This document shows, in pieces, positions 26,413-64,000 of a stretch of DNA of 64,000 nucleotides. The position numbers were made by a program, and so were the translations under genes. This stretch comes from Gammaproteobacteria bacterium (GTDB lineage: Bacteria > Pseudomonadota > Gammaproteobacteria > QZLD01), in assembly GCA_033852155.1 (NCBI GenBank), contig JAWSVA010000014.1, positions 101,393 through 165,392 of the forward strand, read 5' to 3'. A model generated the notes under the pieces. The model saw nothing but the letters and a program-made list of their open reading frames with translations. It had not been told where the DNA came from and made no database searches. Position 1 is the stretch's first letter. Each line of letters opens with the position of its first letter.

Positions 26413-26500
26413 TGGCGGACAGGGAGGGATTCGAACCCTCGGTACGTTACCGTACACACACTTTCCAGGCGTGCTCTTTCGGCCACTCAGACACCTGTCC
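26413..26500 (-). tRNA. tRNA-Ser (anticodon GGA), class II with long variable arm, CCA encoded
   Basis: Reverse complement folds as GGACAGG-TG-...-CACGC-CU[GGA]AA-GUGUG-long variable arm (UGUACGGUAACGUACC)-GAGGG-TTCGAAT-CCCTC-CCTGTCC-G-CCA. Its 3' end faces the hsd block. Confidence 0.9.
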
Positions 26501-50344: not shown

Positions 50345-50368
50345 ATTTTACATTCGCGAATGTAAAAT
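50345..50368. promoter_or_regulatory. Perfect 24-bp palindrome ATTTTACATTCG|CGAATGTAAAAT just downstream of pbpC
   Basis: Read directly. Zero-spacer dyad, AT-rich arms; either a weak terminator hairpin or a dimeric-regulator operator. Confidence 0.4.
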
Positions 50369-50859
50369 CTTAATCTGAGGCATTTTTGCCACTTTTTGCA
50401 ATTTTCAAAAAAGACAATCTATATATTTATCAAAAGATTAACATAATCAGTGAATTGTCCACTCGAGTGGACAATGTTTGCAAAAAGCACCTAAAAAAAC
50501 AAAAAACACTGCCGAAAAAGTTTGGGAATATTGGGATAGGAGAAAGAACTAATACTAACCTTGTAAGTTGGTGGTGAGCCCTTCGACTTAAGTTTATCTC
50601 GAGCCTTTCGGCTACGCTCAAGATAAACCAAGGCCGAGAGGTTCAGGATAAACCAAGGCGAACCCCAACATAACGTAAGCTAACTTAAAAGCAAACGCTG
50701 GGGCTCACTCTTCACCGTCACCCTACGCACCTCAAAAATAATATTTCAAAAGGCATAATATTACTCTGACGCAAATTAGTTTACAGCTACTTGAAGAAGC
50801 ACTAAGTGATTCTATACTGATATTAGCGAATAATACTTAACCACTAGCAGGGAGCTTTC

Positions 50860-52566
50860 ATGGCGAATAGTTATAATCAACTTAAATATGAAGTTGATGA
50901 AAAGCCAGATTTTAAAACCACACTTATTTTAGCCATACAGCACATCTCAATGGTTTATTCAGGAATTGTTTTGATGCCAATAATAATTGGCAGAGCTGTT
51001 GGTTTAGATGCAAGTACAATTAGCTATATGGTGTTCGTTACCGTCATTACCAGCGCAATTGCAACATACATTCAGATTTATAAGATCGGAAAAATCGGCT
51101 CTGGCATGGTCATGTTTATGGGAAGCAGCGGTGCTTACTGGGGGGCAACCTCAACCGCCTTGGCTGTTGGTGGAATACCGCTATTGATGACAATGAATAT
51201 TATTTCTGCCTTTTTGGAAATTATTGCCGCAAAATTCCTGGTACCTTTAAGAAAGATTTTTACGCCCGCAGTTGGCGGAACAGTGATAATGCTAATCCCA
51301 GTTTCTGTTCTTCCTGCAATTCTCAGTGCTTATTCAGGTGAGATAAAAGCTAGCGGACAAGTTTCAGAAAACATTATTATTGCTATTACCACCATGTCAG
51401 TATTGCTTGGGTGTTACATATTCGCCCCTAAAAAATATCAAACTCTTATGGTGCTAGCTGGTTTAATAGTGGGCAGTGTTTTAGCTACTGCCCTAGGAAT
51501 AATGGATTGGCAATCTGTTGCTGGAGCTTCAATTATTGGGCTTCCAGAAATGAAATGGCAACTCCCTGCTTTCGATTTTACCTGGCAACATTTTGCAATT
51601 TTACTAAGCTTTGTTATTGCTACTTTATCTAGCACCATTGAGACAATTGGCGATACCATGGTGTGCGAATCCATCTCTTATCGAAAATTTGTTAAACATG
51701 ATTTCAGCAAAATTAGTGGTGCACTTTATGCTGATGGGATTGGCAATATCCTTTCTGGATTGACAGGAGGAGTTGCTAATACAACCTATAGCACTAATAT
51801 TCCACTTATTAAAATCACGCAAGTATCTTCTCGAATTGTTGGTGGTGTTGGCGCCACCATACTCCTTATGCTGGCATTTTCCCCTGTCATCTCAGCAATA
51901 TTTTTAATTATTCCAAACGCTGTGTTAGTTCCAATTATTGCCTTTACATTTGCCTTGTTATTCGAAGCTGGTTTGTCTTTAGCAGGTAAAAACTCAGATA
52001 GACTTTCCCAATTAATAGTAGGGTTTTCATTTTTAATTGGGGTAGCTGGTGGTCAAAAACTATTATTAAATGAATATATGCCAGCAGTATTTCAGGAAAT
52101 TTTTGGCAACGCATTAACGACCGGTGGCCTCATAGCGATCATTTTATCCATAATTGCCAATATGGTTTTAAAGGGTAAAGTTGTGTTGCATGTTAAAACT
52201 CTAAAGACAAATATGGCTGAGTTTTTGGATGAACTAGAGAATAAGACTCAAGCAAGGTTCTCACTATCGGCTCGTGATTCATTCCGACTTCGCCTGTGTG
52301 CAGAAGAGCTTTTCGACTTTTTAACTGAACATAATATTGATGGTAATCTGACTGCCAAGTTTAGTGTTTATCGTCTTCCAAATGATATTTTGACTTGTGA
52401 TGTGATAACCGCATTTGATGTAAATGATGCAGATATTCTTACTGAAAATGCAGAAATTGGCGAACAATTGAATCTAGTTATTTTAAATAAATTGGCGAAT
52501 AAAGTTGAGCATGTACGCTCTGAATCAGCTGGATATATAACATTCGAATTGGCGCCTGAGGAATAA
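50860..52566 (+). CDS. NCS2-family nucleobase (xanthine/uracil-type) permease with ~130-aa C-terminal cytoplasmic extension resembling an RsbW-like GHKL domain
   Basis: N-terminal ~430 aa has the NCS2 profile (QHISMVYSGIVLMP ...). The C-terminal segment RLRLCAEELFDFLTEH...GNLTAKFSVYRLPNDILTCDVITAFDVNDADI...EIGEQLNLVILNKLA aligns by eye with the C-terminal GHKL domain of the 53271-55694 protein. Confidence 0.8.
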   Translation: MANSYNQLKYEVDEKPDFKTTLILAIQHISMVYSGIVLMPIIIGRAVGLDASTISYMVFVTVITSAIATYIQIYKIGKIGSGMVMFMGSSGAYWGATSTALAVGGIPLLMTMNIISAFLEIIAAKFLVPLRKIFTPAVGGTVIMLIPVSVLPAILSAYSGEIKASGQVSENIIIAITTMSVLLGCYIFAPKKYQTLMVLAGLIVGSVLATALGIMDWQSVAGASIIGLPEMKWQLPAFDFTWQHFAILLSFVIATLSSTIETIGDTMVCESISYRKFVKHDFSKISGALYADGIGNILSGLTGGVANTTYSTNIPLIKITQVSSRIVGGVGATILLMLAFSPVISAIFLIIPNAVLVPIIAFTFALLFEAGLSLAGKNSDRLSQLIVGFSFLIGVAGGQKLLLNEYMPAVFQEIFGNALTTGGLIAIILSIIANMVLKGKVVLHVKTLKTNMAEFLDELENKTQARFSLSARDSFRLRLCAEELFDFLTEHNIDGNLTAKFSVYRLPNDILTCDVITAFDVNDADILTENAEIGEQLNLVILNKLANKVEHVRSESAGYITFELAPEE

Positions 52567-52706
52567 TGTGTCCATTAATGGCATTATGGTAATTGCACTT
52601 ATTACTTGAAAGCGCGTTACCATAGTCTGTATTAACTGCATTTATTACTTTAATTCAGGTAATTTTACCCCAATTATTTCATACCTTTAGGCAGAATGAG
52701 TAAATT

Positions 52707-53099
52707 ATGGAAGAAACTGTTATACAACAAAAGCTCTGTGATGAGTTCCACATTTCTGAAAATTGTTATATTACCGAATTATCCAATACGGCTGACGATC
52801 CGGATGTTTCAATTGCCAAAGCGAGAGTTGAACCAGGAGTTACTACTCAATGGCATAGACTTGTAGGAACTACAGAACGATATTATATAATTAGCGGAAA
52901 AGGTATAGCGGAAATCGGAAAACTGCTACCTCAGGAAGTAAATGCCGGTGATATGCTACTTATCCCTCCAATGTGCCGCCAGCGTATTTCCAACATAGGC
53001 TCTGAAGATCTGATCTTTCTTGCAATCTGCACTCCCCGATTTTCCAATGATGCTTATGAAGATATTGAAGACGCTGTGAATTTATCTAGTACAAGTTAA
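52707..53099 (+). CDS. Cupin-domain protein
   Basis: 130 aa. Cupin_2 motifs G(x)5HxH-like (TTQWHRLVGTTERYYIISGKG) and GDMLLIPP. Confidence 0.7.
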   Translation: MEETVIQQKLCDEFHISENCYITELSNTADDPDVSIAKARVEPGVTTQWHRLVGTTERYYIISGKGIAEIGKLLPQEVNAGDMLLIPPMCRQRISNIGSEDLIFLAICTPRFSNDAYEDIEDAVNLSSTS

Positions 53100-53270
53100 A
53101 ACAAGCAAAAATCAATCTTGTAGCTAATATGAGTACCTCATACCCCCGACTAACTACATTGCTTGTATCGCTAAATTGCCCTCTAAAGATATTGTGCTAA
53201 GCTTTATGCACCAATGTGATTTTACTAATATAGATCAATCCTTTCCTGATAGACTACTTACAGGTTATTT

Positions 53271-55694
53271 ATGCGCTTTCACTCTCGTCTTATTCTACTC
53301 TTCTCAGTAACCATTTTAACTGCTGTTTTCCTCACCGCATCTTTGCTTGCATGGAGCTCCAGAAATTCAATGTATGAATCAACTCGCATTGATGGTGAGT
53401 TAGTTTCTTTACTTCTGGCAAGAAGTGCAGGATTCGCAAAACAGATACCTAAAGAGGTCGAAGATGCTCTCGGAGAACAAATGGTAGCCGCCGCAAACAT
53501 TGCAGCCGAATTTGTTGCCGCTGGTGAAAAAGCTGGCATGACCACCCCAGAGTTAACAACCCGACTTAAAGAGATCGTCAAACGCACTACCATTAATGAG
53601 ATTTGGGTTACCGATGAAAATGGGCATGCACTTCTTCATACCGAACCAGATGTTGATTTCACGTTCAGCCCAGACTCAACATTGCAACCTCAGGCATCCC
53701 AGTTTTGGCCACTGCTAACTAGAGAAAAAACAACCGTAATCCAGGATATGCGCAAAAGAGAAATTGATAATAAGTCATTCAAATACGTCGGCGTTACAGG
53801 GGTAGACAAACCAAGAATCGTTCAAATCGGTCTGGATGCATCAATGATAGAAAATCTTCGCCGCAGCATCGGTCTTGAATTTATGGTAGACAACCTGCTT
53901 GCCGGAGGCGATATTAATGCCATATGGGTTATCTCACCGGAGATGAAAACGATTGCCTACGGCTCAGTTTTTGGCAGCGACGTAAACCCTCAACCCACTC
54001 CTCGTGAAGCCAAAGCACTTCAAGAGGTTTTTGACCAACAAAAAACTCAAAGCATCCTAGAAAGCAATCAAATCACGATTATGACACCAGTGCCTAGTTC
54101 CACAGGAAAAACCATTGGCGTCTCACTAGTCCGTCTACCTCTTGACCACATGAACCAAACATTAAGAAACCAAATATATATTGCTATGATTATTGCTGCT
54201 GGATCGATATTAATTGGTATCTTAATCGCATTTGTAGCTGCCCGCAGAATTACAGATCCCGTTGAAACAATCACAGATGCAGCAAAGGCGATACAAGAAG
54301 GTAGCTTTACATCAGAGTGCCTGCTCAAGGTTTCCCAGAGATCCGATGAGATAGGCCAGTTAGCACAAGTAATTATCAAAATGGCGGAAGATGTATCAGC
54401 TCGCCAAGAATATCTCGATTGTTTGGTCACAGAACGTACGGCCGAACTCGAAATAAAAAATAAAGAAATAGAGCAAACCCACCAACAACTCCATAGTGAA
54501 TTAATGGTGGCACAATCGATGCAAATAGCCATCCTACCCACCGACTTTCCTGTGCATCCTAATTATGAAGTCTTTGGCAAAATGTTACCCGCCAAAGAGA
54601 TGGGAGGCGACTTCTACGATCTCTTCCAGATTGATGATGAGTGGTTGGGATTGGCGATTGCCGATGTCTCTGGTAAAGGGATGCCTGCTGCATTCTTTAT
54701 GGCAGTCTCCCGTACCGAGCTACAGTCAATTGCAGCCAGTGGTGGCGCCCCAGGTGAGGTACTCAGCCAAACCAATCAGAACTTGTGTTCTGAAAATCCA
54801 CTGGAACTATTTGTGACAGTTTTTTATGGGCTGGTAAATATCAAAACTGGACAGTTCATCTACTCCAATGGTGGTCATAACCCCCCTTATATATTGAGAG
54901 CTGATGGCAGCTGCGAAGCCTTACCATTAACTGGCGATATGGCCTTAGGTGTTATGCCCGACCTACTCTATCAAGACAACCAGGTCACCCTTCACACTGG
55001 GGATATGTTGGTGATGTTCACCGATGGTGTCACCGAATCATTTAATCCACAGGACGAAGAGTATGGCGAAGAGCGCCTTATTCAAACACTGAAAACAGCA
55101 AAAGGGGTTTCAGCAAAAGAACAGCTAGAAAATATCTATACCTCTGTTGACAATTTTGCCGACAATCGCGAACAATCAGATGACATAACCTGCCTTCTAT
55201 TCGATTTTCATCCAGAATCTGAATCTGAATCTGAATCTAAATCTGAATCTGGACGTATACCAACATCAGAAGTAATTGTTCTAACTAATGACCTTGCAGA
55301 ACTGGAAAAACTAGCCGGGGCAATTGAAAAATACTGTGACACACACGAGTTACCCCCAGCATGTTGTTTCCAGATAAATCTGGCTCTTGATGAGCTTATT
55401 ACCAACACAATAAGTTATAGTTTCGATGAAGGAGTGACTGGCAATATAACCATCCAGTTATCCTTAAATGCAGATATAGTAACAATATTATTAGTTGATG
55501 ATGGAAATCCATACAACCCTCTAGATACACCGCATCCTGACCTAGACGCTGAGATCGACGAGCGCGAAATTGGCGGCTTAGGCGTACATTTCGTGCGGGA
55601 ATATATGGATACCATAGACTACGAATATATGGATAATAAAAATCAACTAATATTGACCAAACAAACAACACCTCAGGATAACCAAGGAGAATAA
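53271..55694 (+). CDS. Membrane sensor fusion: periplasmic sensor domain - HAMP - PP2C (SpoIIE/RsbU-type) Ser phosphatase - (ESE)n linker - RsbW-like GHKL Ser kinase/anti-sigma domain
   Basis: Two TM helices flank a ~270-aa periplasmic region. HAMP after TM2. PP2C motifs GDFYDLF...AIADVSGKGMPAAFFMA...FTDGVTE. C-terminal LALDELITNTISYSF ... VDDGNPYNP ... GGLGVHFV (RsbW/SpoIIAB-like HATPase). Confidence 0.85.
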   Translation: MRFHSRLILLFSVTILTAVFLTASLLAWSSRNSMYESTRIDGELVSLLLARSAGFAKQIPKEVEDALGEQMVAAANIAAEFVAAGEKAGMTTPELTTRLKEIVKRTTINEIWVTDENGHALLHTEPDVDFTFSPDSTLQPQASQFWPLLTREKTTVIQDMRKREIDNKSFKYVGVTGVDKPRIVQIGLDASMIENLRRSIGLEFMVDNLLAGGDINAIWVISPEMKTIAYGSVFGSDVNPQPTPREAKALQEVFDQQKTQSILESNQITIMTPVPSSTGKTIGVSLVRLPLDHMNQTLRNQIYIAMIIAAGSILIGILIAFVAARRITDPVETITDAAKAIQEGSFTSECLLKVSQRSDEIGQLAQVIIKMAEDVSARQEYLDCLVTERTAELEIKNKEIEQTHQQLHSELMVAQSMQIAILPTDFPVHPNYEVFGKMLPAKEMGGDFYDLFQIDDEWLGLAIADVSGKGMPAAFFMAVSRTELQSIAASGGAPGEVLSQTNQNLCSENPLELFVTVFYGLVNIKTGQFIYSNGGHNPPYILRADGSCEALPLTGDMALGVMPDLLYQDNQVTLHTGDMLVMFTDGVTESFNPQDEEYGEERLIQTLKTAKGVSAKEQLENIYTSVDNFADNREQSDDITCLLFDFHPESESESESKSESGRIPTSEVIVLTNDLAELEKLAGAIEKYCDTHELPPACCFQINLALDELITNTISYSFDEGVTGNITIQLSLNADIVTILLVDDGNPYNPLDTPHPDLDAEIDEREIGGLGVHFVREYMDTIDYEYMDNKNQLILTKQTTPQDNQGE
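55215..55250. repeat. (GAATCT)n hexanucleotide microsatellite (5 perfect + 1 variant unit) encoding the ESESESESKSES linker
   Basis: gaatct gaatct gaatct gaatct aaatct gaatct, inside the 53271-55694 gene between the PP2C and GHKL domains. Confidence 0.85.
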
Positions 55695-55695
55695 T

Positions 55696-56034
55696 ATGAA
55701 TGTCAATTCTGAAACCGTAGGCGATATTAACATCGTCACCCCTAGTGGACGTCTAGATAGCATGACAGCCCCTAGTTTCGAATCTGAACTCCTGAGCCGT
55801 ACTGAAGAAAGCACAGACGGTGTGATCGTCGATTTTACTGACCTTGACTACGTATCCAGTGCAGGGCTAAGAATTATGCTCATGGCTGCTAAACGAATGA
55901 AAGCAGCATCTCGCAAGCTTATCATATGCGGACTAAGTGACTCTATACATGATGTGTTTAGAATCAGTGGTTTTCTGACTATTTTCACCATTGTCGGCAG
56001 CCGTGAAGAAGCGATCGAAAAGGCAAAAGAATAG
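55696..56034 (+). CDS. STAS-domain anti-sigma-factor antagonist (RsbV/SpoIIAA-like)
   Basis: 112 aa. Conserved phosphorylatable Ser region DLDYVSSAGLRIM. Start 2 nt after the stop of the upstream phosphatase/kinase gene. Confidence 0.85.
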   Translation: MNVNSETVGDINIVTPSGRLDSMTAPSFESELLSRTEESTDGVIVDFTDLDYVSSAGLRIMLMAAKRMKAASRKLIICGLSDSIHDVFRISGFLTIFTIVGSREEAIEKAKE

Positions 56035-56039
56035 AGGAA

Positions 56040-56906
56040 GTGACCAGCAAAATCCTGCCTAATAAAAACTATACAATCAGAATCGCGACGCTTACAGAAA
56101 TTGAAATTGCCATTGAATGGGCTGCCAAAGAGGGTTGGAATCCTGGCTTAAACGATATCGATTGTTACTATACAGCTGATGCAAACGGCTTCTTTATTGG
56201 GCTCCTCGACGATGAGCCTATTGCCACAATATCTGCAATTAAATATGGTAATACGTTTGGTTTCATTGGCTTCTATATTGTTAAGCCAGAATATCGCAAT
56301 AAGGGTTACGGCATACAAATTTGGAATGCTGCTTTAAAAAATTTACAGGGCCGAAATATTGGCCTTGATGGCGTAATTGCCCAACAAGATAATTACCAAA
56401 AATCCGGTTTCAACATGGCTTATAGCAATATACGCTATAAAGGAATCAGCGGTGGTAAACCACCTTATGACACAGAAATAATAGAACTATCCACCCTACC
56501 CTTTAAAACCATTGAGCTATACGAACGTCCATTCTTTCCTGAAGATCGGTCCCTATTTATCAAATCTTGGATAAATCAACCTGATTGCACTGCTCTGGGT
56601 ATAATGCGAAATGGAAAACTCCAAGGCTACGGTGTGATACGCGCGTGTCGTTCCGGATACAAGATAGGACCTCTTTTTGCGGAATGCCCAAAACAGGCCG
56701 AGTCTCTTTTTCTGGCGCTAAAATCCAGAGTTAAAGCAGGCGAACCAATTTATCTTGACGTACCAGAATCAAATCAAGCAGCAATATCATTAGCGAAGCG
56801 TAATAACATGCAGATAGTATTCGAGACGGCCAGAATGTATACGGGTGAAGAACCAGCTATACCACTGCATCGTGTCTTTGGAGTTACTTCTTTTGAAGTT
56901 GGATGA
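56040..56906 (+). CDS. GNAT-family N-acetyltransferase (tandem GNAT-like halves), GTG start
   Basis: 288 aa. Acetyl-CoA binding-type motif region (IVKPEYRNKGYGIQIWN). The 3' ~350 bp is duplicated downstream at 60172-60554. Confidence 0.7.
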   Translation: MTSKILPNKNYTIRIATLTEIEIAIEWAAKEGWNPGLNDIDCYYTADANGFFIGLLDDEPIATISAIKYGNTFGFIGFYIVKPEYRNKGYGIQIWNAALKNLQGRNIGLDGVIAQQDNYQKSGFNMAYSNIRYKGISGGKPPYDTEIIELSTLPFKTIELYERPFFPEDRSLFIKSWINQPDCTALGIMRNGKLQGYGVIRACRSGYKIGPLFAECPKQAESLFLALKSRVKAGEPIYLDVPESNQAAISLAKRNNMQIVFETARMYTGEEPAIPLHRVFGVTSFEVG

Positions 56907-56936
56907 ATAAATTAGCCAATGCATTTGAGATAGTTG
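56554..56936. repeat. Left copy of a 383-bp direct repeat (about 97% identical to 60172-60554)
   Basis: Aligned by eye: the same sequence from GTCCCTATTTATCAAATCTTGG through GCATTTGAGAT, with ~10 substitutions. Covers the GNAT 3' end plus 30 bp downstream. Confidence 0.85.
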
Positions 56937-56945
56937 ATTGCCATA

Positions 56946-58334
56946 CTAAGTCTCTTCAAGGTTTGATTTAACTCGAGGTGAGAGTTCAAATTGTGGGTGT
57001 TGTTTTATAGATTTTTCCGCCTTCAAAGACTGTAAAAACAGCCGAATACTTTCCTCAAGATAATCTTCGTGCTTTTCAAAGCAGCACCTTTGATCATAAT
57101 CCAAGCCTTTAAAATCTTTCAGATAACATCCTCCAAGACAAGACGGCAAGAACTTACAGTTCAAACATTTATATTCATCAAATGGAGACACAGAAAGCCA
57201 TTTATTACTTATCTGATTATTAATTATTTCTTGATCTAAATTTCCAACAACATGCTCGGGCTTACCCACCGTTTCCCAACATTTATATAATTTACCACCA
57301 GCATCAATGACGTAACTATTTTTACGCAATGCGCAACATGCTATTTTTTGAGGTTGAACTGGTTTATGCATTTTAAAGCCCAGTTCAATTGCATACTCCC
57401 AATATTCACTAAGCAATAAAGAAAATTCGGCCGGATTGTAGCATGATTTACATTGAGATCCTTTTTGGTCATCTGCAAAACTCTTATGCACCGGGCCAAA
57501 ACACAAACGTATTTTCCTTTGAAGATCTTCATCTGCAAGAAATTTAAGTAAAGGTTTTATATCAGATGAATTTGATGTATCTACTTTAATACCAAGACTA
57601 ATATCGATATCAGAAACAGCATGCAGATTTTTAATAATAGTGCTAAAAGAATCACCACCATCAATAGACTTTCTTCGCTCATTGTGAACTGTTTGTGTTC
57701 CATCTATTGTTACAGCAATAGTTTCTACCTTATATTTTTTTAATAATTTTGAACATGATGTCGTAAGTAAATACCCATTGCTTACAACAACTGCTGAATA
57801 AGTTATTCCTTTCGATTCTGCAAAATCAATCAGCTGTTCCGAAATGGCTGCAATCTGCTCCATTGCCAAAAGAGGCTCTCCACCAAACCAAACAATATTT
57901 ATATGTTTGCAATTTCCAGCTTTAATTTTGATAAAATCAACCAATTTGGCGATTGTTTCCACGCCCATATAGCTAGTTGATTTATCCTGAAAACAATAAG
58001 TGCAATTGAAATTACAATCCATTGTCGGTGCAATAGTAAAATCTACATATTGATCTGTATATCTATGGTATTCATGCTCAGCGTTAAGCAAACTTACTTC
58101 ATCAACATGCTTAGGAATAATCATTCCTGCGGAATATAAAGCATCATAGAGTCCTTCTGGAATATCTATAATATCGCTACTTTTTTTAGATTTATTATTA
58201 TTTAGCCAATTATAGTGTTCATCGCTTAATTGCACTAATGACCCAGTTAGGGTGCTAAAAGCATACGAGGTTGCTCCATCTTCTATCGGAAATATAAACT
58301 TTGATACCTTCATCCGTTCACTAACGACATACAA
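56946..58334 (-). CDS. Radical SAM/SPASM-domain peptide-modifying enzyme (RiPP maturase-like)
   Basis: CNFNCTYC (CxxxCxxC) about 105 aa from the N-terminus. C-terminal Cys-rich SPASM region (CKSCYNP ... CCALRKN ... YKCW ... CLNCKFLPSCLGGC ... CCF). 462 aa. The start overlaps the end of the upstream peptide ORF by 25 nt. Confidence 0.85.
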   Translation of the reverse strand: MYVVSERMKVSKFIFPIEDGATSYAFSTLTGSLVQLSDEHYNWLNNNKSKKSSDIIDIPEGLYDALYSAGMIIPKHVDEVSLLNAEHEYHRYTDQYVDFTIAPTMDCNFNCTYCFQDKSTSYMGVETIAKLVDFIKIKAGNCKHINIVWFGGEPLLAMEQIAAISEQLIDFAESKGITYSAVVVSNGYLLTTSCSKLLKKYKVETIAVTIDGTQTVHNERRKSIDGGDSFSTIIKNLHAVSDIDISLGIKVDTSNSSDIKPLLKFLADEDLQRKIRLCFGPVHKSFADDQKGSQCKSCYNPAEFSLLLSEYWEYAIELGFKMHKPVQPQKIACCALRKNSYVIDAGGKLYKCWETVGKPEHVVGNLDQEIINNQISNKWLSVSPFDEYKCLNCKFLPSCLGGCYLKDFKGLDYDQRCCFEKHEDYLEESIRLFLQSLKAEKSIKQHPQFELSPRVKSNLEET

Positions 58335-58528
58335 GGTTTTCCACCTGATTCATAATACGGACCACAAAGGCATGATAACTGCTCTTCAATTATCTTTTTC
58401 ATTATTTCAAAACGCTCATCACCAGCATTTTCAATATTTTTTAATTGCTCAGCTGTTAATTCAAAAATCAATCGTGTTTTATCCCTACTAGCATCAAGTA
58501 TTACCTTTGTTTCCTTATCATCACTCAT
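58310..58528 (-). CDS. Candidate RiPP precursor peptide (72 aa; acidic/helical leader plus Cys-rich C-terminal core SCLCGPYYESGGKPCMSLVNG)
   Basis: Strong ribosome-binding site (AGGAGAATTGT-ATG). Overlaps the maturase start (translational coupling). Leader is rich in K/E/D with an FELTAEQL motif. Core has 3 Cys, a GG and YY. Confidence 0.5.
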   Translation of the reverse strand: MSDDKETKVILDASRDKTRLIFELTAEQLKNIENAGDERFEIMKKIIEEQLSCLCGPYYESGGKPCMSLVNG

Positions 58529-58996
58529 ACAATTCTCCTTTGAATATATTAAATTAATATTAAACTCTCACATCAACTTCAATAGTTATTTGTAAAGTAA
58601 CTATCAATCATTTGACCTATGTACTTTACTTATACAATAACAACACTGTCAACTTATCTGAGCCTTGCGAATTCGTAATTAATACATTTACAATAAATCA
58701 TAGTATTTACTATAACCCGCAGGATTTTACTACTTTTAGAAGTCTTTGGTAGGGTGTGTTTTGATACCAGTTGCCGCCCCATCACCAAATTAAGAAGATC
58801 AACCCTCTTGTATATAAAGAGTCCGTTGACCTTTTTTATTTCTCAATATGATATTTTTTTAAAGGATGTCACTCAAACATATCAAACTGCACAGGATGAG
58901 ATGCAGCAAAATATTTTGATGTTTGTTCTTTTACTTTGTTTTCTGTCTTCTCTTTAAGTTTCTTTGCTTTATAAACAGCTGTTGCCTGTTCTTGGA

Positions 58997-60106
58997 TTAG
59001 CTCTTGTGTGGTACTTCATTCTTTTGAACATGAACATATAGATCCCTGCTAAGCCCTATTCCCTTAAACCAGCTCTGCTTAGCTTTAACCGCATATTCTT
59101 TAAGCTTTTCTGTTGCACCTGCAAGATGGTAATAGCGTGAACCAAAATATTTAACCGACTTAATCCAGTTTTTTTCTTGTACTCCAAGCTGTTCAAGAAT
59201 TGGTCTTATCTCAGGGGGGATATACCCACGTTTATCGTCTCGTATTGCTCTGCCTGTCCAATCTGCTAGTTCAAAGTAATCAAGTGGTGAGAAGCTTATT
59301 CCCTTATCATTTAAGTTATCGCTATTATCACAGGTTATCGACCCTGAAAATGGCAAAAGATCTTGTGGCTGAGCCATCTTCTTAACTGATTTTTTATTAT
59401 GTCTGCACTCTGTTGTAAGAGTTGGAACATCATTGGTTTTACGCTGTTTTCTTTTGTTCTCTTTCTGTGCAAAAACCTTGATGCGTTCTTCTATTGAAGT
59501 GAATTCTGAGCTTTGAATGGAATCACTTATCTTGGCTCTAATTGGATTTAAATCCACATAGATCATGCATGATAACAACGCTGTTTCATCTAATAGAGCT
59601 TGGCTTTTAAACCGTCCTTCCCAGAACCTGCCTTTACAGTTATCTTCTTTATTCGCCTGTCTTGCGATGGATTCATTCATGCAGCGCATTAACCAGGATA
59701 TATTGGTTAATCTATCACGCCATTCTGCAATTATCTCATCAACCTTTTCTAACTCAGCCTTACCAAGTTCATCACCAGTCATATAGCGATTAATCAAAAC
59801 ATTGCCTGCAAACAGCTGCACCCAGCGCTCGATAACTTCTTTGTTCGACCAGCTATCAGCCTTCTCTTTATCTACATGAAAAACAACATGATAGTGATTA
59901 CTCATTACCGCATAAGCACAGATATCTATCGCATAGATTGATGATAGCTGCTTAAGCTTATCTACAACCCATTTCTTACGGTGGTCAAAATTCTTTCCTG
60001 TTGAATAATCTTCCCCGCACAAGAAAGCACGGCGCACACAGCGAACCACACAATGGTAGTAGGGAGTATCTTCTAGGCTTACTTGATCTTTTCTGGCTTT
60101 TGTCAT
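58997..60106 (-). CDS. HUH-type Y1 transposase, IS200/RAYT-like (COG1943) long form (369 aa)
   Basis: YHCVVRCVRRAF (cf. YHVVWCPKYR), HUH motif SNHYHVVFHV, GRFWEGRF (cf. IWQPRFWEH of RAYT), catalytic-Tyr region MIYVDLNPIRA (cf. DYIYINPVKHG). Has an extra ~170-aa C-terminal region. Confidence 0.55.
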   Translation of the reverse strand: MTKARKDQVSLEDTPYYHCVVRCVRRAFLCGEDYSTGKNFDHRKKWVVDKLKQLSSIYAIDICAYAVMSNHYHVVFHVDKEKADSWSNKEVIERWVQLFAGNVLINRYMTGDELGKAELEKVDEIIAEWRDRLTNISWLMRCMNESIARQANKEDNCKGRFWEGRFKSQALLDETALLSCMIYVDLNPIRAKISDSIQSSEFTSIEERIKVFAQKENKRKQRKTNDVPTLTTECRHNKKSVKKMAQPQDLLPFSGSITCDNSDNLNDKGISFSPLDYFELADWTGRAIRDDKRGYIPPEIRPILEQLGVQEKNWIKSVKYFGSRYYHLAGATEKLKEYAVKAKQSWFKGIGLSRDLYVHVQKNEVPHKS

Positions 60107-60171
60107 GATTTGGTTATTCTACCCTGCTGATGCATAAACGTAAATCAAATTTTGGGTGTCCTTTATATTCA

Positions 60172-60554
60172 GTCCCTATTTATCAAATCTTGGATAAATC
60201 AACCTGATTGCACTGCTCTGGGTATAATGCGAAATGGAAAACTCCAAGGCTACGGTGTGATACGCGCGTGTCGTTCCGGATACAAGATAGGACCTCTTTT
60301 TGCGGAATGCCCAAAACAGGCCGAGTCTCTTTTTCTGGCGCTAAAATCCAGGGTTAAAGCAGGTGAACCAATTTATCTTGATGTACCAGAACCAAATCAA
60401 GCAGCAATATCATTAGCGAAGCTTAATAACATGCAGGTAGTATTCGAGACTGCCAGAATGTATACGGGTGAAGAACCAGCTATACCACTGCATCATGTCT
60501 TTGGAGTTACCTCTTTTGAAGTTGGATGAATAAATTGGCCAATGCATTTGAGAT
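60172..60554 (+). pseudogene. Right copy of the 383-bp repeat: orphan 3' fragment of the GNAT gene (ORF 60152-60529, 125 aa, with no N-terminal half)
   Basis: Encoded protein LFIKSWINQPDCTALGIMRNGKLQGYGVIRACRSGYKIGPLF...GVTSFEVG is about 96% identical to the C-terminus of the 56040-56906 product. Confidence 0.8.
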
Positions 60555-60613
60555 TACCAATAATTCATTATTTTAAGTCCTATATTTCATATACATGAAG
60601 TGTTTAGAATCAG

Positions 60614-62347
60614 TTATTTGGCAATGATGCGTCCTTCAATACTGCGTATTACAGGTGAATTGGTAGTGAATTCTTCGACCAACAGATCGATCCCAAGAAT
60701 ACCCGTATCACGACAATACGCGCCACTCGCACAAAGTTCCTGGAGCATCGTGTAACCGTCTCCACCACCAGCCATAAAACCATTGATAGCTATCCGGTAG
60801 GTCGTACTGGGATCGACAGGCTGATGATTGATAGTCAGTTTGGTCACCCGCCCCGCCGTCCTTAGTGCACCGACACAAGGCAATTGGGTGCAATAGGTCA
60901 AAGTCATGCCAGCTATTTGAGGAAAAGCGCCATCTCCTGCCTGAGACACCCCATAATCCAGCGCAGCAATCAGGGTATCACCATCAATTTCCATAGCTAC
61001 TAGCGTATTGCCAAATGGCAAAACTGCTAAAGCATCCTCAAACGTAATATCACCCTGGTTAAGATCAGCACGAATGCCGCCGCCATTTATAATTGCTGCA
61101 TCCACCTGATCTGAGTTAGCTGCCGATTCGAGGAAAACATCAGCAATCAGATTACCCTGTGGCATCTCTTGAGTACGCACGCCTGGGGCGCGCTGAGCAT
61201 CAAAGAACATACCGGCCTGACCTATAATTGTATTGGCGAAAATTTCTACGGGTTGACGATAGGCGGCTACCTTGGCCTTAATTACAGCGTTTTCCGCAGC
61301 AACCTGCTGCTGACACTCCACGGCGCCATTCGCAAATTCACAACCGCGCACAAAGACAGGCTGGCTTTGCCAGTTCTGAATCACGCCGAATTTATCAAAG
61401 CTGACATCGATTTGTCCCAGCCACCGCCCCGACTCGTTAGCGCTAACAATAAGCACCGGATTACCATCCTGCGCAGTCACCACGGTTGGATAGGGACCTT
61501 TGCTTAGTGCGCCCTGCCCGGGAGCGACTGCGTCGATAGTGGTCGGATCGCCCAAAAGAGCATGGTCGTGCCCCGAAATGATGAGATCAACCCCCCTCAG
61601 TTGTAGCGCTTTCTGCACATCGACCGTATAGCCGTAATGGGAGAGTAGAATGATTTTGTTGACGCCCTGTTCAGTCAGGCGATTAGCCTCCGCCTGGACA
61701 CTAGCGACGTAATCAAGAAAGCTTAGATTAGAACCAGGCTTAGAGACGGTAGGAACATCTTCAGTAACGATACCAAGAATGCCGAATTGCTCGCCACCGC
61801 GTTCCAGGATAACGCTGGTTGGGAGCAGGTCTGATAGCGCCGACTCGCGAGAAGTGTCGACATTGGTGGCGATCATAGGTGTCCGTAATGGTTCAGTTTC
61901 GTACACAGCGCTGGAGATGGCAACAGGTTCGCCACGTAAAGCCCGCCCCAGTTCTGCCGGTTCCATATCAAATTCATGGTTGCCCAGAGTGGTCGCATCG
62001 TAACCAAGGGCATTGAGCGCCATAACTTCGGCTGATCCTTTCCAGGCATTATAAAAAATTGTTCCTTGAAAGTTGTCACCGGAGTCTAGCAGGAGGGTGT
62101 GTGGTTTGATTGCGCGTATTTCATCAATAATTGTCTTGCGGCGAGCAATACCTCCCTGTTGTGGCCCAGGGTTGTTGGCAGACAGTTCGCTATCGCGGGG
62201 AAAAGGCTCCAGACGGCTATGGGTATCATTAGTATGGAGGATGGAGATAGTTATGGGCTGATGGTTCCAGCTGTCGCTATTACCACCACAAGCTGTCAGC
62301 AGCGATAATGAAAGGATCAGGAAAAGCAGATCTACGTGCATATTCAA
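60614..62347 (-). CDS. Lipoprotein bifunctional 5'-nucleotidase / metallophosphoesterase (UshA-like)
   Basis: Lipobox LLTAC|GG. Calcineurin-like phosphoesterase motifs (DTHSRLE, GDNFQG, GNHEFD, GHDH). C-terminal 5'-nucleotidase domain. Markedly GC-richer than the rest of the window. Confidence 0.85.
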   Translation of the reverse strand: MNMHVDLLFLILSLSLLTACGGNSDSWNHQPITISILHTNDTHSRLEPFPRDSELSANNPGPQQGGIARRKTIIDEIRAIKPHTLLLDSGDNFQGTIFYNAWKGSAEVMALNALGYDATTLGNHEFDMEPAELGRALRGEPVAISSAVYETEPLRTPMIATNVDTSRESALSDLLPTSVILERGGEQFGILGIVTEDVPTVSKPGSNLSFLDYVASVQAEANRLTEQGVNKIILLSHYGYTVDVQKALQLRGVDLIISGHDHALLGDPTTIDAVAPGQGALSKGPYPTVVTAQDGNPVLIVSANESGRWLGQIDVSFDKFGVIQNWQSQPVFVRGCEFANGAVECQQQVAAENAVIKAKVAAYRQPVEIFANTIIGQAGMFFDAQRAPGVRTQEMPQGNLIADVFLESAANSDQVDAAIINGGGIRADLNQGDITFEDALAVLPFGNTLVAMEIDGDTLIAALDYGVSQAGDGAFPQIAGMTLTYCTQLPCVGALRTAGRVTKLTINHQPVDPSTTYRIAINGFMAGGGDGYTMLQELCASGAYCRDTGILGIDLLVEEFTTNSPVIRSIEGRIIAK

Positions 62348-62675
62348 AACAACCTCATTTTACAAACAATCTCTTTTCGAAAAAAACTGTGTAAATTTAA
62401 CTCCTCTGATATTGGCATCTTATTTATTGGTTTTAGAACTAGCCGAATGCTATATAAGAATTATTTTTAATTTTAGTACATCTGAGTTTTAAAAAGCAGA
62501 AATAATCCACACATATAGGATGTTAATCGTATAAGGGCAAAGTAACTAGAAAATACTCACTATTCTCTGTAGCAGACGTAAGTAGAGTGCCACGAGTAAA
62601 AGACAGCGAACAAAATTGATTTCCTGTATATATAACCTATCCTTAATAGAGTTAAATCTGTTGGAATCTTAAAAA

Positions 62676-64000
62676 ATGGTAAATATTATCAAGCAGTTAT
62701 GGCTAATCTGCACTCTCATTGCGTTAGCTTCGCTTGCCCTGTTGTTATCCGATCTAGAACAACGTCCACATTATTCTCAAAGTGAACTAAAGACCTATCC
62801 CGCCATTGCGATCATGCAGATTACTTCCACTAACCTACTTGATAGTCATGTCAAAGGGGTTGTCGACCGTTTGCAGGAAGCAGGTTTTCTGGCACCGGAT
62901 AAGAAAAACCTGCATATTTTTAATCCACAGAGTGACATTTCCACGGCCAATGCCATTGCCAGTGAGCTTGCCAATGGTCCCTACGAAATTATAATCACCT
63001 CCAGCACCATTGCACTCCAGGTTTTTGCTAATGCCAACCGCACCAGCCAGAAAAAACATGTATTTGGAGCTGTAACCAATCCCTACACAACTGGGGTTGG
63101 AATCACTGGACCAGAGCCTACACAGCACCCCCCTTATCTGGCGGGGGTAGGCACCTTTCAGCCAGTCAAGGCCGCCGTTAGACTGGCGCATGAAATGAAT
63201 CCAGAATTACAACGATTGGGCGTGGTATGGAATTCTTCCGAACAATCTTCCGAAGCCTGTCTGATTGAGGCAAGAGCCATCACTGCCGAGCTGAATATCA
63301 ACCTGATTGAGGCCATCGCCACCAACACGTCGGAAGTTTACGAAGCCACACAATCCCTGATTGCCAAAAAAGTAGATGCCATTTGGATTGGAGGAGACGT
63401 GGTCGCGACTGCCTCCATAGATCTAATCATCAAACTGGCCACGCAGGCCGGAATTCCTGTCTTCACGAATGACCCTACCGATGCAGACAAAGGGGCAATC
63501 TTTGGTTTGGGTGCGGATTATGCAACCGTAGGCAAGCATACGGCGAATATCGCCATAGCCATCTTAAATGGAGCCTCCCCCGGCTCTTTCAGAATAGACA
63601 ATGACGTTCCTGAGCTTTTGAAAATCAATAACAATGCAATCAAAAAATTCCATTCAAAATGGAAAGTCACGGCTGGGGCTAAGGCCACTTTGACCAAGCA
63701 AAACGACCTATTCCTGCAAAACAACCGCCCAATCGCCCCGCCTGGAAAAAGTTGGCATATAGGGCTTTCCTATATTGTTCCCGCCCCAATTTTTGACTAC
63801 GCGATCCAAGGGTTCAAAGATGGATTGGCGGACCTGGGATTCATAGAAGGCAAAAATATCGAGATCACTATTCAACACGCCAACGGGGACCTTTCATTTT
63901 TACCTCAGGCAACAACGAACCTGGTTCAGCTAAAACCGGATCTATTGGTGGCTATGTCCACGCCAAGTCTGGGAAGTGCTATAGCGCATTCCAATGGAAT
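62676..64000 (+). CDS. ABC transporter substrate-binding protein, tandem-domain type (COG2984/PF04392-like), 3'-truncated by the window edge
   Basis: Self-translated ORF from the ATG at 62676 (MVNIIKQLWLICTLIALASLALL... signal/anchor). Two homologous halves (...AIAIMQITS...GVVWNSSEQSS... and ...HIGLSYIVPAPIFD...) typical of this SBP family. Not in the ORF track because it runs off the window. Confidence 0.6.
   Translation, partial: MVNIIKQLWLICTLIALASLALLLSDLEQRPHYSQSELKTYPAIAIMQITSTNLLDSHVKGVVDRLQEAGFLAPDKKNLHIFNPQSDISTANAIASELANGPYEIIITSSTIALQVFANANRTSQKKHVFGAVTNPYTTGVGITGPEPTQHPPYLAGVGTFQPVKAAVRLAHEMNPELQRLGVVWNSSEQSSEACLIEARAITAELNINLIEAIATNTSEVYEATQSLIAKKVDAIWIGGDVVATASIDLIIKLATQAGIPVFTNDPTDADKGAIFGLGADYATVGKHTANIAIAILNGASPGSFRIDNDVPELLKINNNAIKKFHSKWKVTAGAKATLTKQNDLFLQNNRPIAPPGKSWHIGLSYIVPAPIFDYAIQGFKDGLADLGFIEGKNIEITIQHANGDLSFLPQATTNLVQLKPDLLVAMSTPSLGSAIAHSNG

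Follow-up and report, generated by a model that had tools for sequence, protein, structure and literature searches.

Introduction

Partner switching is known from textbooks as the way in which alternative sigma factors are controlled. In the SigF switch of mycobacteria, the tasks are divided among several proteins: in Mycobacterium smegmatis, RsbW2, whose N, G1 and G2 motifs are intact, acts on the STAS protein RsfB solely by phosphorylating it (PMC7693655), RsfB is dephosphorylated by the REC-PP2C protein RsfR under the control of the histidine kinase RsfS (PMC10950880), and the kinase-dead RsbW1/UsfX binds unphosphorylated RsfB (PMC7693655). Such domains can also be combined on one chain, as in Rv1364c of Mycobacterium tuberculosis, which has sensor, PP2C, GHKL and STAS domains (PMC7693655). 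Here we analyze a locus composed of related parts in a stretch of 64,000 nucleotides from a Gammaproteobacteria bacterium (GenBank assembly GCA_033852155.1, contig JAWSVA010000014.1, positions 101,393 to 165,392 of the forward strand); "the window" denotes this whole stretch. The element of interest is a permease of the NCS2 family whose C-terminal tail is an RsbW-like cytoplasmic domain lacking kinase motifs, encoded upstream of a membrane sensor with phosphatase and kinase domains and of a STAS protein. We propose that the permease could be the output of a partner switch.

Partner-switch outputs other than sigma factors are few and poorly understood. In the SypE/SypA system of Vibrio fischeri and the SiaABC system of Pseudomonas aeruginosa, a PP2C phosphatase and a kinase switch a STAS or STAS-like protein between states, and neither system has a sigma factor as its output (PMC10120452; 10.1101/674879). 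The STAS protein MlaB binds and regulates a transporter component directly, with no sigma factor involved (10.1101/2020.04.27.064196). A link between transporters and anti-sigma-factor antagonists is on record from 2000 (Aravind and Koonin, as cited in PMC8256260), and the SLC4, SLC23 and SLC26 transporters share a fold of 7+7 transmembrane (TM) helices (PMC6497670).

Results

The C-terminal domain of the permease

The locus comprises five open reading frames (ORFs). The genes named in an initial annotation of the window, made without database searches, are among them and lie where it had placed them. The permease gene is divided as follows.

50860-52566, + strand: permease, 568 aa
50860..52170, + strand: permease residues 1-437, divergent NCS2/NAT transmembrane core, with the final TM helix at residues 418-437 (PF00860, E 4e-52)
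52171..52566, + strand: permease residues 438-568 and stop codon, predicted kinase-dead RsbW/UsfX-like cytoplasmic domain of the HATPase_c_2 fold (hhalign, Foldseek, family profile)

Searched by itself, the tail of the window permease has no Pfam match, to PF13581 (HATPase_c_2) or any other family, even at E up to 10, and no PDB sequence match. A word index of 5.8 billion proteins likewise returned nothing for the tail alone, a result of the insensitivity of the word index that says nothing on uniqueness, since the identical full-length protein is indexed. When the tail was compared by BLASTP with the GHKL domain of the 807-aa sensor encoded downstream, the E value was 0.021, which is not significant by itself. 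The initial annotation had aligned these two domains block by block, and MAFFT recovered the same blocks, the pair alone again not being significant.

A search with the full-length permease retrieved about 75 proteins of 565-600 aa that form a coherent family; all have the tail, and three already carry a precomputed PF13581 match. In an alignment of 36 family tails (A1), half (18/36) match PF13581, with a best E of 5.3e-9, and the A1 family profile matches PDB structures of M. tuberculosis RsbW/UsfX and Bacillus subtilis RsbW at E 7.6e-5 to 3.6e-3. The permease-tail family was also compared by hhalign with a profile of 16 genuine GHKL domains (A4), drawn from proteins of the 807-aa type and from two stand-alone kinases encoded near other family members; the probability was 98.3% and the E value 1.9e-14 over 137 columns. 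The AlphaFold model of the window tail (pLDDT 87, pTM 0.82) was used in a Foldseek search of the PDB, in which the top 11 matches were all UsfX, RsbW or SpoIIAB chains (E 7e-7 to 1.4e-4, TM-scores of about 0.6-0.73). The best was 8ih8, the complex of UsfX with the STAS protein RsfB; 8jzt, 1th8 and 6m36 were also among the top matches, and SiaB was among the weaker ones. By profile-level homology and by its RsbW-type Bergerat fold, the tail belongs with the RsbW-type domains. The initial claim that the two C-terminal domains of the locus are homologous is thus borne out by profile-profile comparison, and Foldseek agrees. In the full-length model, the last TM helix (418-437) joins the first strand of the tail domain (440-446) without a linker.

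The tail has lost the motifs by which such domains act as kinases. In an alignment with SpoIIAB, RsbW, the domain of the 807-aa protein and the two stand-alone kinases, all of the real kinases keep E-x-x-x-N, D-x-G and G-x-G, and E51, N55, D86 and G112-L-G114 are invariant among the active GHKL domains of A4. The permease tails retain only the Glu pair of the N-box helix, invariant as E47 and E48 of A1. The N-box Asn is Phe in the window and Thr, Leu, His or Tyr in other tails, and the G1 DxG and G2 GxG motifs are missing in all 36 aligned tails. The window tail reads AFDVND for DDGNP at G1 and GEQLNL for GGLGV at G2; the counterpart of the G2 GGLG is EQLN in the window, xxLGL in P0004-P0012 and EVSLRLL in the major clade. 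Judging from these sequences, ATP binding has almost certainly been lost throughout the permease-tail family, and the tail is therefore predicted to be a pseudokinase. The initial description of two GHKL domains at this locus accordingly holds for the fold but fails if a second kinase is meant, as the permease copy is without the N-box Asn, G1 and G2.

The fusion family and its hosts

The tail domain was found in 1,309 clusters at 50% identity (496 at E<=1e-10). It is always C-terminal, and it follows an NCS2 core wherever the cluster sequence is long enough. A scan of one genome per species with an alignment of major-clade tails (A2) placed fusion loci in at least 594 species genomes. In the nearest relative of the window (contig JBFPEN010004670.1 of GCA_041156785.1, hereafter L088), the tail is 91.7% identical to that of the window, equal to the TM core. 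Because of this core-level identity, the breadth of the family, the invariably C-terminal position, the absence of a linker and the pTM of 0.82, we take the tail to be a functional domain and not one in decay.

The initial annotation had suggested that an NCS2-GHKL fusion was undescribed. In agreement with this, full-text searches found no paper on NCS2 combined with HATPase_c_2 or on RsbW-like domains on transporters, while automatic Pfam annotation flags a few members. The fusion family is real and large, and it is apparently undescribed.

Nearly all of the 80 fusion genomes that we sampled are metagenome-assembled genomes (MAGs) and, judging from isolate and bin names, many of them appear to derive from sponge or coral symbionts. 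The hosts of the fusion include Alpha- and Gammaproteobacteria, Nitrospirales, Nitrospinota, Latescibacterota, Binatia, Opitutales, Limisphaerales, Gemmatimonadetes, Actinomycetes and Poriferihabitaceae. The tail is 59-90% identical across the 80 genomes. This level of sequence identity across phyla suggests horizontal spread in host-associated communities.

Genomic neighbors of the fusions

Neighbor families were defined by phmmer searches, all-against-all ORF clustering and Pfam scans over the 10-kb flanks of 80 of the at least 594 loci (L005-L084), a sample of the major clade rather than of the subclade to which the window belongs. The top recurring neighbors encode STAS proteins (15 loci), HAMP histidine kinases (14), REC-PP2C proteins (14) and stand-alone RsbW-type kinases (13), and a Peripla_BP_6 protein also recurs. 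The stand-alone kinases are about 140 aa long, with intact motifs. All 17 neighboring STAS proteins carry the motif Y[IM]SSAGL; that of the window reads YVSSAGL. On a neighbor-joining tree, the loci linked to partner-switch genes fall in four separate clades that differ in gene order.

Linked clade 1: 8 Nitrospirales
Linked clade 2: 5 MAGs classified only as "bacterium"
Linked clade 3: 2 Alphaproteobacteria, with two STAS genes, Amt and glutamine synthetase III (GS-III)
Linked clade 4: 1 Alphaproteobacterium, with REC-PP2C upstream

The window and L088 represent a fifth arrangement. The co-occurrence of the fusion with STAS genes, a check that the initial annotation had proposed, is therefore real but partial: STAS, PP2C and RsbW-type genes are the top neighbors, but STAS genes are not universal (15/80), and P0002 is without one.

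No ORF of the sigma-70 family was found in the 64-kb window or in roughly 85 fusion loci by phmmer with SigF, RpoE and FliA seeds, a search that a divergent extracytoplasmic function (ECF) sigma factor could escape. The initial statement that no sigma factor is encoded nearby agrees with this result for the window.

Nitrogen-related genes recur near the fusions (L039, L042, L069, L081, L085 and others). P-II and Amt occur at six loci, and L069 and L081 have Amt, GS-III and two STAS genes. Further neighbors include Peripla_BP_6, arginine decarboxylase with spermidine synthase, and agmatine deiminase with CN-hydrolase. The recurring nitrogen genes hint that the permease substrate is a nitrogen source.

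The sensor, STAS and GNAT proteins

The gene for the 807-aa sensor is followed by genes for a STAS protein and a GNAT acetyltransferase.

53271..55694, + strand: 807-aa membrane sensor with HAMP, PP2C and GHKL domains (Pfam, NCBIfam, hydropathy, motifs)
54237-54392, + strand: HAMP domain of the 807-aa protein, residues 323-374 (Pfam)
54639-55208, + strand: SpoIIE/PP2C domain of the 807-aa protein, residues 457-646 (Pfam, E 3.4e-52)
55284-55661, + strand: HATPase_c_2 (PF13581) RsbW-type Ser kinase domain of the 807-aa protein, residues 672-797 (Pfam, E 1.8e-20)
55696..56034, + strand: single-domain STAS protein of the anti-sigma-factor antagonist type, 112 aa (Pfam STAS, E 1e-18; TIGR00377 above cut-off)
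56040..56906, + strand: two-domain GNAT acetyltransferase, 288 aa (Pfam Acetyltransf_1 and Acetyltransf_18)

By hydropathy, two hydrophobic segments of the 807-aa protein (7-25 and 304-322) enclose about 278 residues, in line with the initial description of two TM helices around a periplasmic domain of about 270 aa followed by HAMP; the periplasmic domain has only a weak match, to dCache_1. The metal-binding motifs of the PP2C domain are all present (GGDFYD445, ADVSGKG464, TDGVTE584 and DDITC637), and the kinase motifs are intact (N-box DELITN707, G1 DDGNP743 and G2 GGLG768). The initial annotation had singled out the combination of sensor, PP2C and GHKL on one chain as notable. It is ordinary: HAMP, SpoIIE and HATPase_c_2 occur together in about 100 of the best 120 homologs listed (35-83% identity), at least 100 homologs with this domain set being 35-47% identical, several homologs are named "ATP-binding SpoIIE family protein phosphatase" by NCBI, and Rv1364c provides a precedent (PMC7693655). 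The sensor-PP2C-kinase fusion is not novel.

The STAS protein has the DYVSSAGL motif that had been noted initially. Its predicted phospho-acceptor is Ser55 (nt 55858-55860), the second Ser of this motif, which aligns with S58 of SpoIIAA and S56 of RsbV in the phmmer alignment; the protein is thus a single-domain antagonist with a phosphorylatable Ser. A STAS gene lies directly 3' of the 807-type gene in 5 of 6 other loci (L088 and L089-L092). In the sixth, L093, no STAS ORF was found after the 807-type gene, in a stretch that is partly N-masked.

The GNAT gene, not discussed in the initial annotation, is translationally linked to the STAS gene, and its product is a candidate output, either instead of the permease or besides it. 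In a Desulfuromonas (L090) and in a MAG of the Halothiobacillaceae (L093), 807-type genes are flanked by genes for proteins of about 505 aa that have an N-terminal RsbW-like domain and a GNAT-like region.

L090, 10772-12289 and 4963-6474: RsbW-like-GNAT fusions
L093, 6328-7857: RsbW-like-GNAT fusion

We found no description of this architecture. In two of the three RsbW-like domains, the N-box Asn and G2 glycines are lost; the third, in a paralog, retains them. The motif-less copies read EEALVY...SLSLFLL (L090) and EEAFVT...ELATFLL (L093), the L090 copy still having D-K-G at G1. Against the permease-tail profile, the RsbW-like domains of the GNAT fusions score better (E 1.2e-8 and 2.6e-6) than the active kinase domain of the 807-aa protein does as a single sequence (E 3.8e-4). 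A Rosetta-stone link from the window GNAT to the RsbW-like-GNAT protein of L090 was considered but dropped, as no homology between the GNAT parts could be detected (E 0.1).

Layout of the locus and flanking DNA

Two further features belong to the permease end of the locus.

50791..50818, + strand: promoter-like site TTGAAG-16-TATACT, 5' of the permease gene (consensus scan; match only)
52707..53099, + strand: Cupin_2 protein, 130 aa (Pfam Cupin_2, E 4.8e-8)

The -10 region of the promoter-like site is kept in the alignment with L088. The intergenic gaps are 140 nt between the permease and cupin genes, 171 nt between the cupin and 807-aa genes, 1 nt between the 807-aa and STAS genes, and 5 nt between the STAS and GNAT genes. 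Because of the 1-nt and 5-nt gaps, we assign the genes for the 807-aa, STAS and GNAT proteins to one operon. The permease and cupin genes are probably co-transcribed, since the 140 bp that separate them in the window are only 33 bp in L088. No intrinsic terminator was found on the + strand in the gaps among the five genes, and terminator-like sites numbered 9, against 5.2 +/- 2.3 expected. In L088 the order of permease, cupin, 797-aa sensor, STAS and GNAT genes is kept, with 84-92% protein identity (91.9% for GNAT).

A Cupin_2 gene accompanies the permease gene in the window (52707-53099), in L088 (2219-2596) and in L087 (2869-3165), the locus of the distant family member P0006. The cupin gene beside P0006 is in divergent orientation, and its product is 33% identical to that of the window (E 4e-11). 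The cupin may be a functional partner of the permease, for example an enzyme that acts on its substrate.

The DNA 5' of the permease gene contains two perfect palindromes (window positions 50346-50367 and 50455-50474). One of them, TTTTACATTCGCGAATGTAAAA, is unchanged in L088. For the other, TTGTCCACTCGAGTGGACAA, L088 has TTGTCCCGACGTCGGGACAA, with the same outer arms and a center that is altered yet palindromic. The palindromes could be an operator or a hairpin. About 150 bp of this upstream region, at about 50505-50655, are missing in L088 and carry GATAAACCAAGGC twice (50622-50634 and 50647-50659); the stretch may be a small repeat element inserted there.

Beyond the five genes, there is a second copy, 97% identical, of the final 386 bp of the GNAT gene (56546-56931 and 60169-60554). 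The copies flank a radical-SAM gene (56946-58334, - strand) and a transposase-like gene (58997-60106, - strand). These two genes lie in a block of about 5.7 kb (about 56923-62610) that also contains a GC-richer ORF of 577 aa (60614-62347, - strand). The block is missing in L088, where the GNAT gene runs straight into the counterpart of window position 62611 onward, and it looks like a recent insertion with target duplication. The GC content of window positions 60001-64000 is 0.45-0.48, compared to about 0.36 elsewhere, and part of this region belongs to the insertion missing from L088. No rRNA was detected by Rfam in the whole window, which has a single tRNA (26416-26500, - strand).

The transporter core

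The Xan_ur_permease match (PF00860, E 4e-52) spans residues 21-396 of the permease and positions 3-382 of 389 in the model. The permease scores 48.3 with NCBIfam NF037981 (cut-off 40) and stays under the cut-offs of TIGR00801 and pbuX, and the closest PDB sequence is UraA (E 2e-16). The full-length AlphaFold model has a pLDDT of 87.1 and a pTM of 0.82. With a full-length NCS2/NAT profile match and a core of 14 TM helices, the permease belongs to this family.

The NAT signature motif is [Q/E/P]-N-x-G-x4-T-[R/K/G], with a substrate-binding Glu or Gln. The corresponding region of the window permease (51780-51830, residues about 307-323) reads NTTYSTNIPLIKITQV. It departs from the signature, as the window has T-N-I-P-L-I-K-I-T-Q, with Thr at the position of UraA Glu290 and Pro in place of the motif Gly. 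The consensus of the fusion family at this position, YSxSVSxxELTG, is not the canonical motif either. By its sequence, the permease thus represents a divergent NCS2 branch. The label "NCS2 nucleobase permease" used initially is correct for the NCS2 core, but the word "nucleobase" is not established, given the change from Glu290 to Thr, the YSxSVS consensus and the TIGR00801 and pbuX scores below cut-off.

Discussion

We propose that the locus is a partner-switching circuit whose output is the transporter and not a sigma factor, the STAS protein docking on the pseudokinase domain of the permease; we assign this reading a probability of roughly 0.5. According to this model, the kinase domain of the 807-aa protein would hold the STAS protein in a phosphorylated, inactive state until a periplasmic signal tips the balance toward the PP2C domain. 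Unphosphorylated STAS protein would then dock on the permease, as RsfB does on kinase-dead UsfX/RsbW1, and docking would alter transport activity or the oligomerization of the transporter. The model is proposed because the parts match the division of labor in M. smegmatis, with the tail in place of RsbW1. Docking and any influence it has on transport are our inference, whereas fold, motif loss, conservation and neighborhood recurrence are computed.

Several observations weigh against this proposal. The loop of the tail equivalent to the lid (residues 521-534), whose counterpart contacts the STAS protein in SpoIIAB, is short, disordered and modeled with low confidence. The cupin gene and a conserved 171-bp intergenic stretch part the permease from the operon of 807-aa, STAS and GNAT genes, and this stretch probably holds a promoter of the operon's own. 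Pairs of 807-type and STAS genes also adjoin unrelated genes, such as those for C39-ABC exporters and an MFS transporter (L089, L091, L092). Among the 80 fusion loci, 65 (81%) have no STAS gene within 10 kb, and the nearest relatives outside the window lineage (P0002, with 56% identity, P0004, P0006 and P0014) have none adjacent. The 19% of loci with a STAS gene nearby compare with an expectation of a few per cent, which is our own estimate from STAS gene density. Horizontal transfer among sponge symbionts may moreover have spread the STAS-linked clades blockwise, in which case they are not fully independent.

Some of these observations would also be explained if the adjacency were coincidental or indirect. 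The tail would then be a structural, dimerization or regulatory module of the permease, and the 807-aa and STAS proteins would govern another target, most plausibly GNAT. RsbW and SpoIIAB are dimers, as are NCS2 transporters, and a purely structural role of the tail is conceivable for this reason. The tight coupling of the STAS and GNAT genes, kept in L088, fits such an arrangement, as do the 807-type genes that lie next to RsbW-like-GNAT fusions (L090, L093) or unrelated genes, the 81% of fusion loci without a nearby STAS gene and the absence of the module from P0002. However, GNAT of the window lacks an RsbW-like domain, no relation to the GNAT part of the L090 protein is detectable (E 0.1), and the permease carries the only kinase-dead candidate docking domain of the locus. 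Partner-switch genes are also the most recurrent neighbors of the fusions, in 4-5 clades with varied gene orders, and the five-gene order is kept in L088 at 84-92% protein identity. On balance, we regard a coincidental or indirect adjacency as plausible but as the less likely reading.

Alternatively, the permease could be a membrane-tethered anti-sigma factor, a "transceptor" that frees a sigma factor encoded elsewhere when the STAS protein binds or substrate is transported. Both in sequence and in structure, the tail best matches UsfX/RsbW anti-sigma-F factors, among them 8jzt, a complex with SigF, and kinase-dead RsbW1/UsfX proteins are true anti-sigma factors (PMC7693655). Genes for anti-sigma factors are, however, normally co-transcribed with the sigma gene (PMC7693655), and the seed searches that a divergent ECF factor could escape recovered no sigma-70-family ORF from the 64-kb window or the roughly 85 loci; a role as anti-sigma factor is improbable. 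That the tail is an active second Ser kinase phosphorylating the STAS protein is very improbable and we reject it, because, for all that it shares the fold and superfamily of RsbW and an invariant N-box Glu, the Asn that coordinates Mg-ATP, DxG and GxG are missing in 36/36 tails, and in vitro RsfB was phosphorylated by RsbW2 but not by those mycobacterial RsbW homologs that group with kinase-negative anti-sigma factors (PMC7693655).

Because motif-less RsbW-like domains are also fused to GNAT proteins beside 807-type genes, we tentatively suggest that kinase-dead RsbW-like domains could serve as a general "docking adaptor" that plugs non-transcriptional effectors, such as NCS2 permeases and GNATs, into partner switches, with the NCS2 fusion as the mirror image of SulP/SLC26-STAS. 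If this were the case, the link between transporters and anti-sigma-factor antagonists would be two-sided, and it would provide phosphorylation-gated transporter regulation that is widespread in sponge and coral symbionts.

If the permease is the output, the partner switch would act post-translationally and directly on a transporter, through a kinase-dead anti-sigma domain that is part of the transporter itself. The system is simple, with one STAS protein, one 130-aa domain and one phospho-serine. It bears on the question of why SulP/SLC26 transporters carry STAS domains, as the cognate partner fold sits on the sister family NCS2/SLC23. The occurrence of the fusion in symbiont MAGs and beside nitrogen genes (Amt, P-II, GS-III, Peripla_BP_6) indicates that the family may matter for nutrient exchange between hosts and symbionts.

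Comparison with known systems

The systems with non-sigma outputs resemble the proposed circuit in part. In SypE/SypA and SiaABC, the outputs are biofilm regulators or a diguanylate cyclase and not a transporter with a fused pseudokinase. In MlaB-MlaF, a single-domain STAS protein regulates a transporter without a sigma factor, as is only proposed here, but the partner of MlaB is an ABC ATPase and not an RsbW-like domain. To our knowledge, no phosphorylation switch by a PP2C/kinase pair is known for MlaB-MlaF. Like Rv1364c and the phosphatases named by NCBI, the 807-aa protein unites on one chain a PP2C phosphatase and an RsbW-type kinase, which oppose each other, and STAS follows; in contrast to Rv1364c, it is anchored in the membrane, its periplasmic domain is Cache-like, a HAMP domain is present, and STAS is encoded by a separate gene.

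Among transporters, SulP/SLC26-STAS proteins are similar in that a secondary transporter of the 7+7-TM type carries one half of a STAS/anti-sigma-kinase pair at its cytoplasmic C-terminus. They differ in that the permease described here belongs to another transporter family, NCS2/SLC23, and carries the RsbW-like half instead of STAS. No RsbW-like partner of SulP STAS domains is reported in the literature that we searched.

The mycobacterial SigF switch (PDB 8ih8, 8jzt) includes the best structural and sequence match of the tail, UsfX. Both systems have a kinase-dead RsbW-type domain, proposed here to be the binding target, and a separate intact kinase and PP2C phosphatase that set, or here would set, the phosphorylation state of the STAS protein. 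The sponge-symbiont loci match the mycobacterial list of parts one for one, including the histidine kinase and REC-PP2C, except that no sigma gene was found nearby and the kinase-dead domain ends a 14-TM NCS2 permease. In the window, which shares these two differences, kinase and phosphatase are on one periplasm-sensing membrane protein. It is this permease fusion that is the novel part, making the locus a candidate for partner switching with a transporter-fused pseudokinase as its output.

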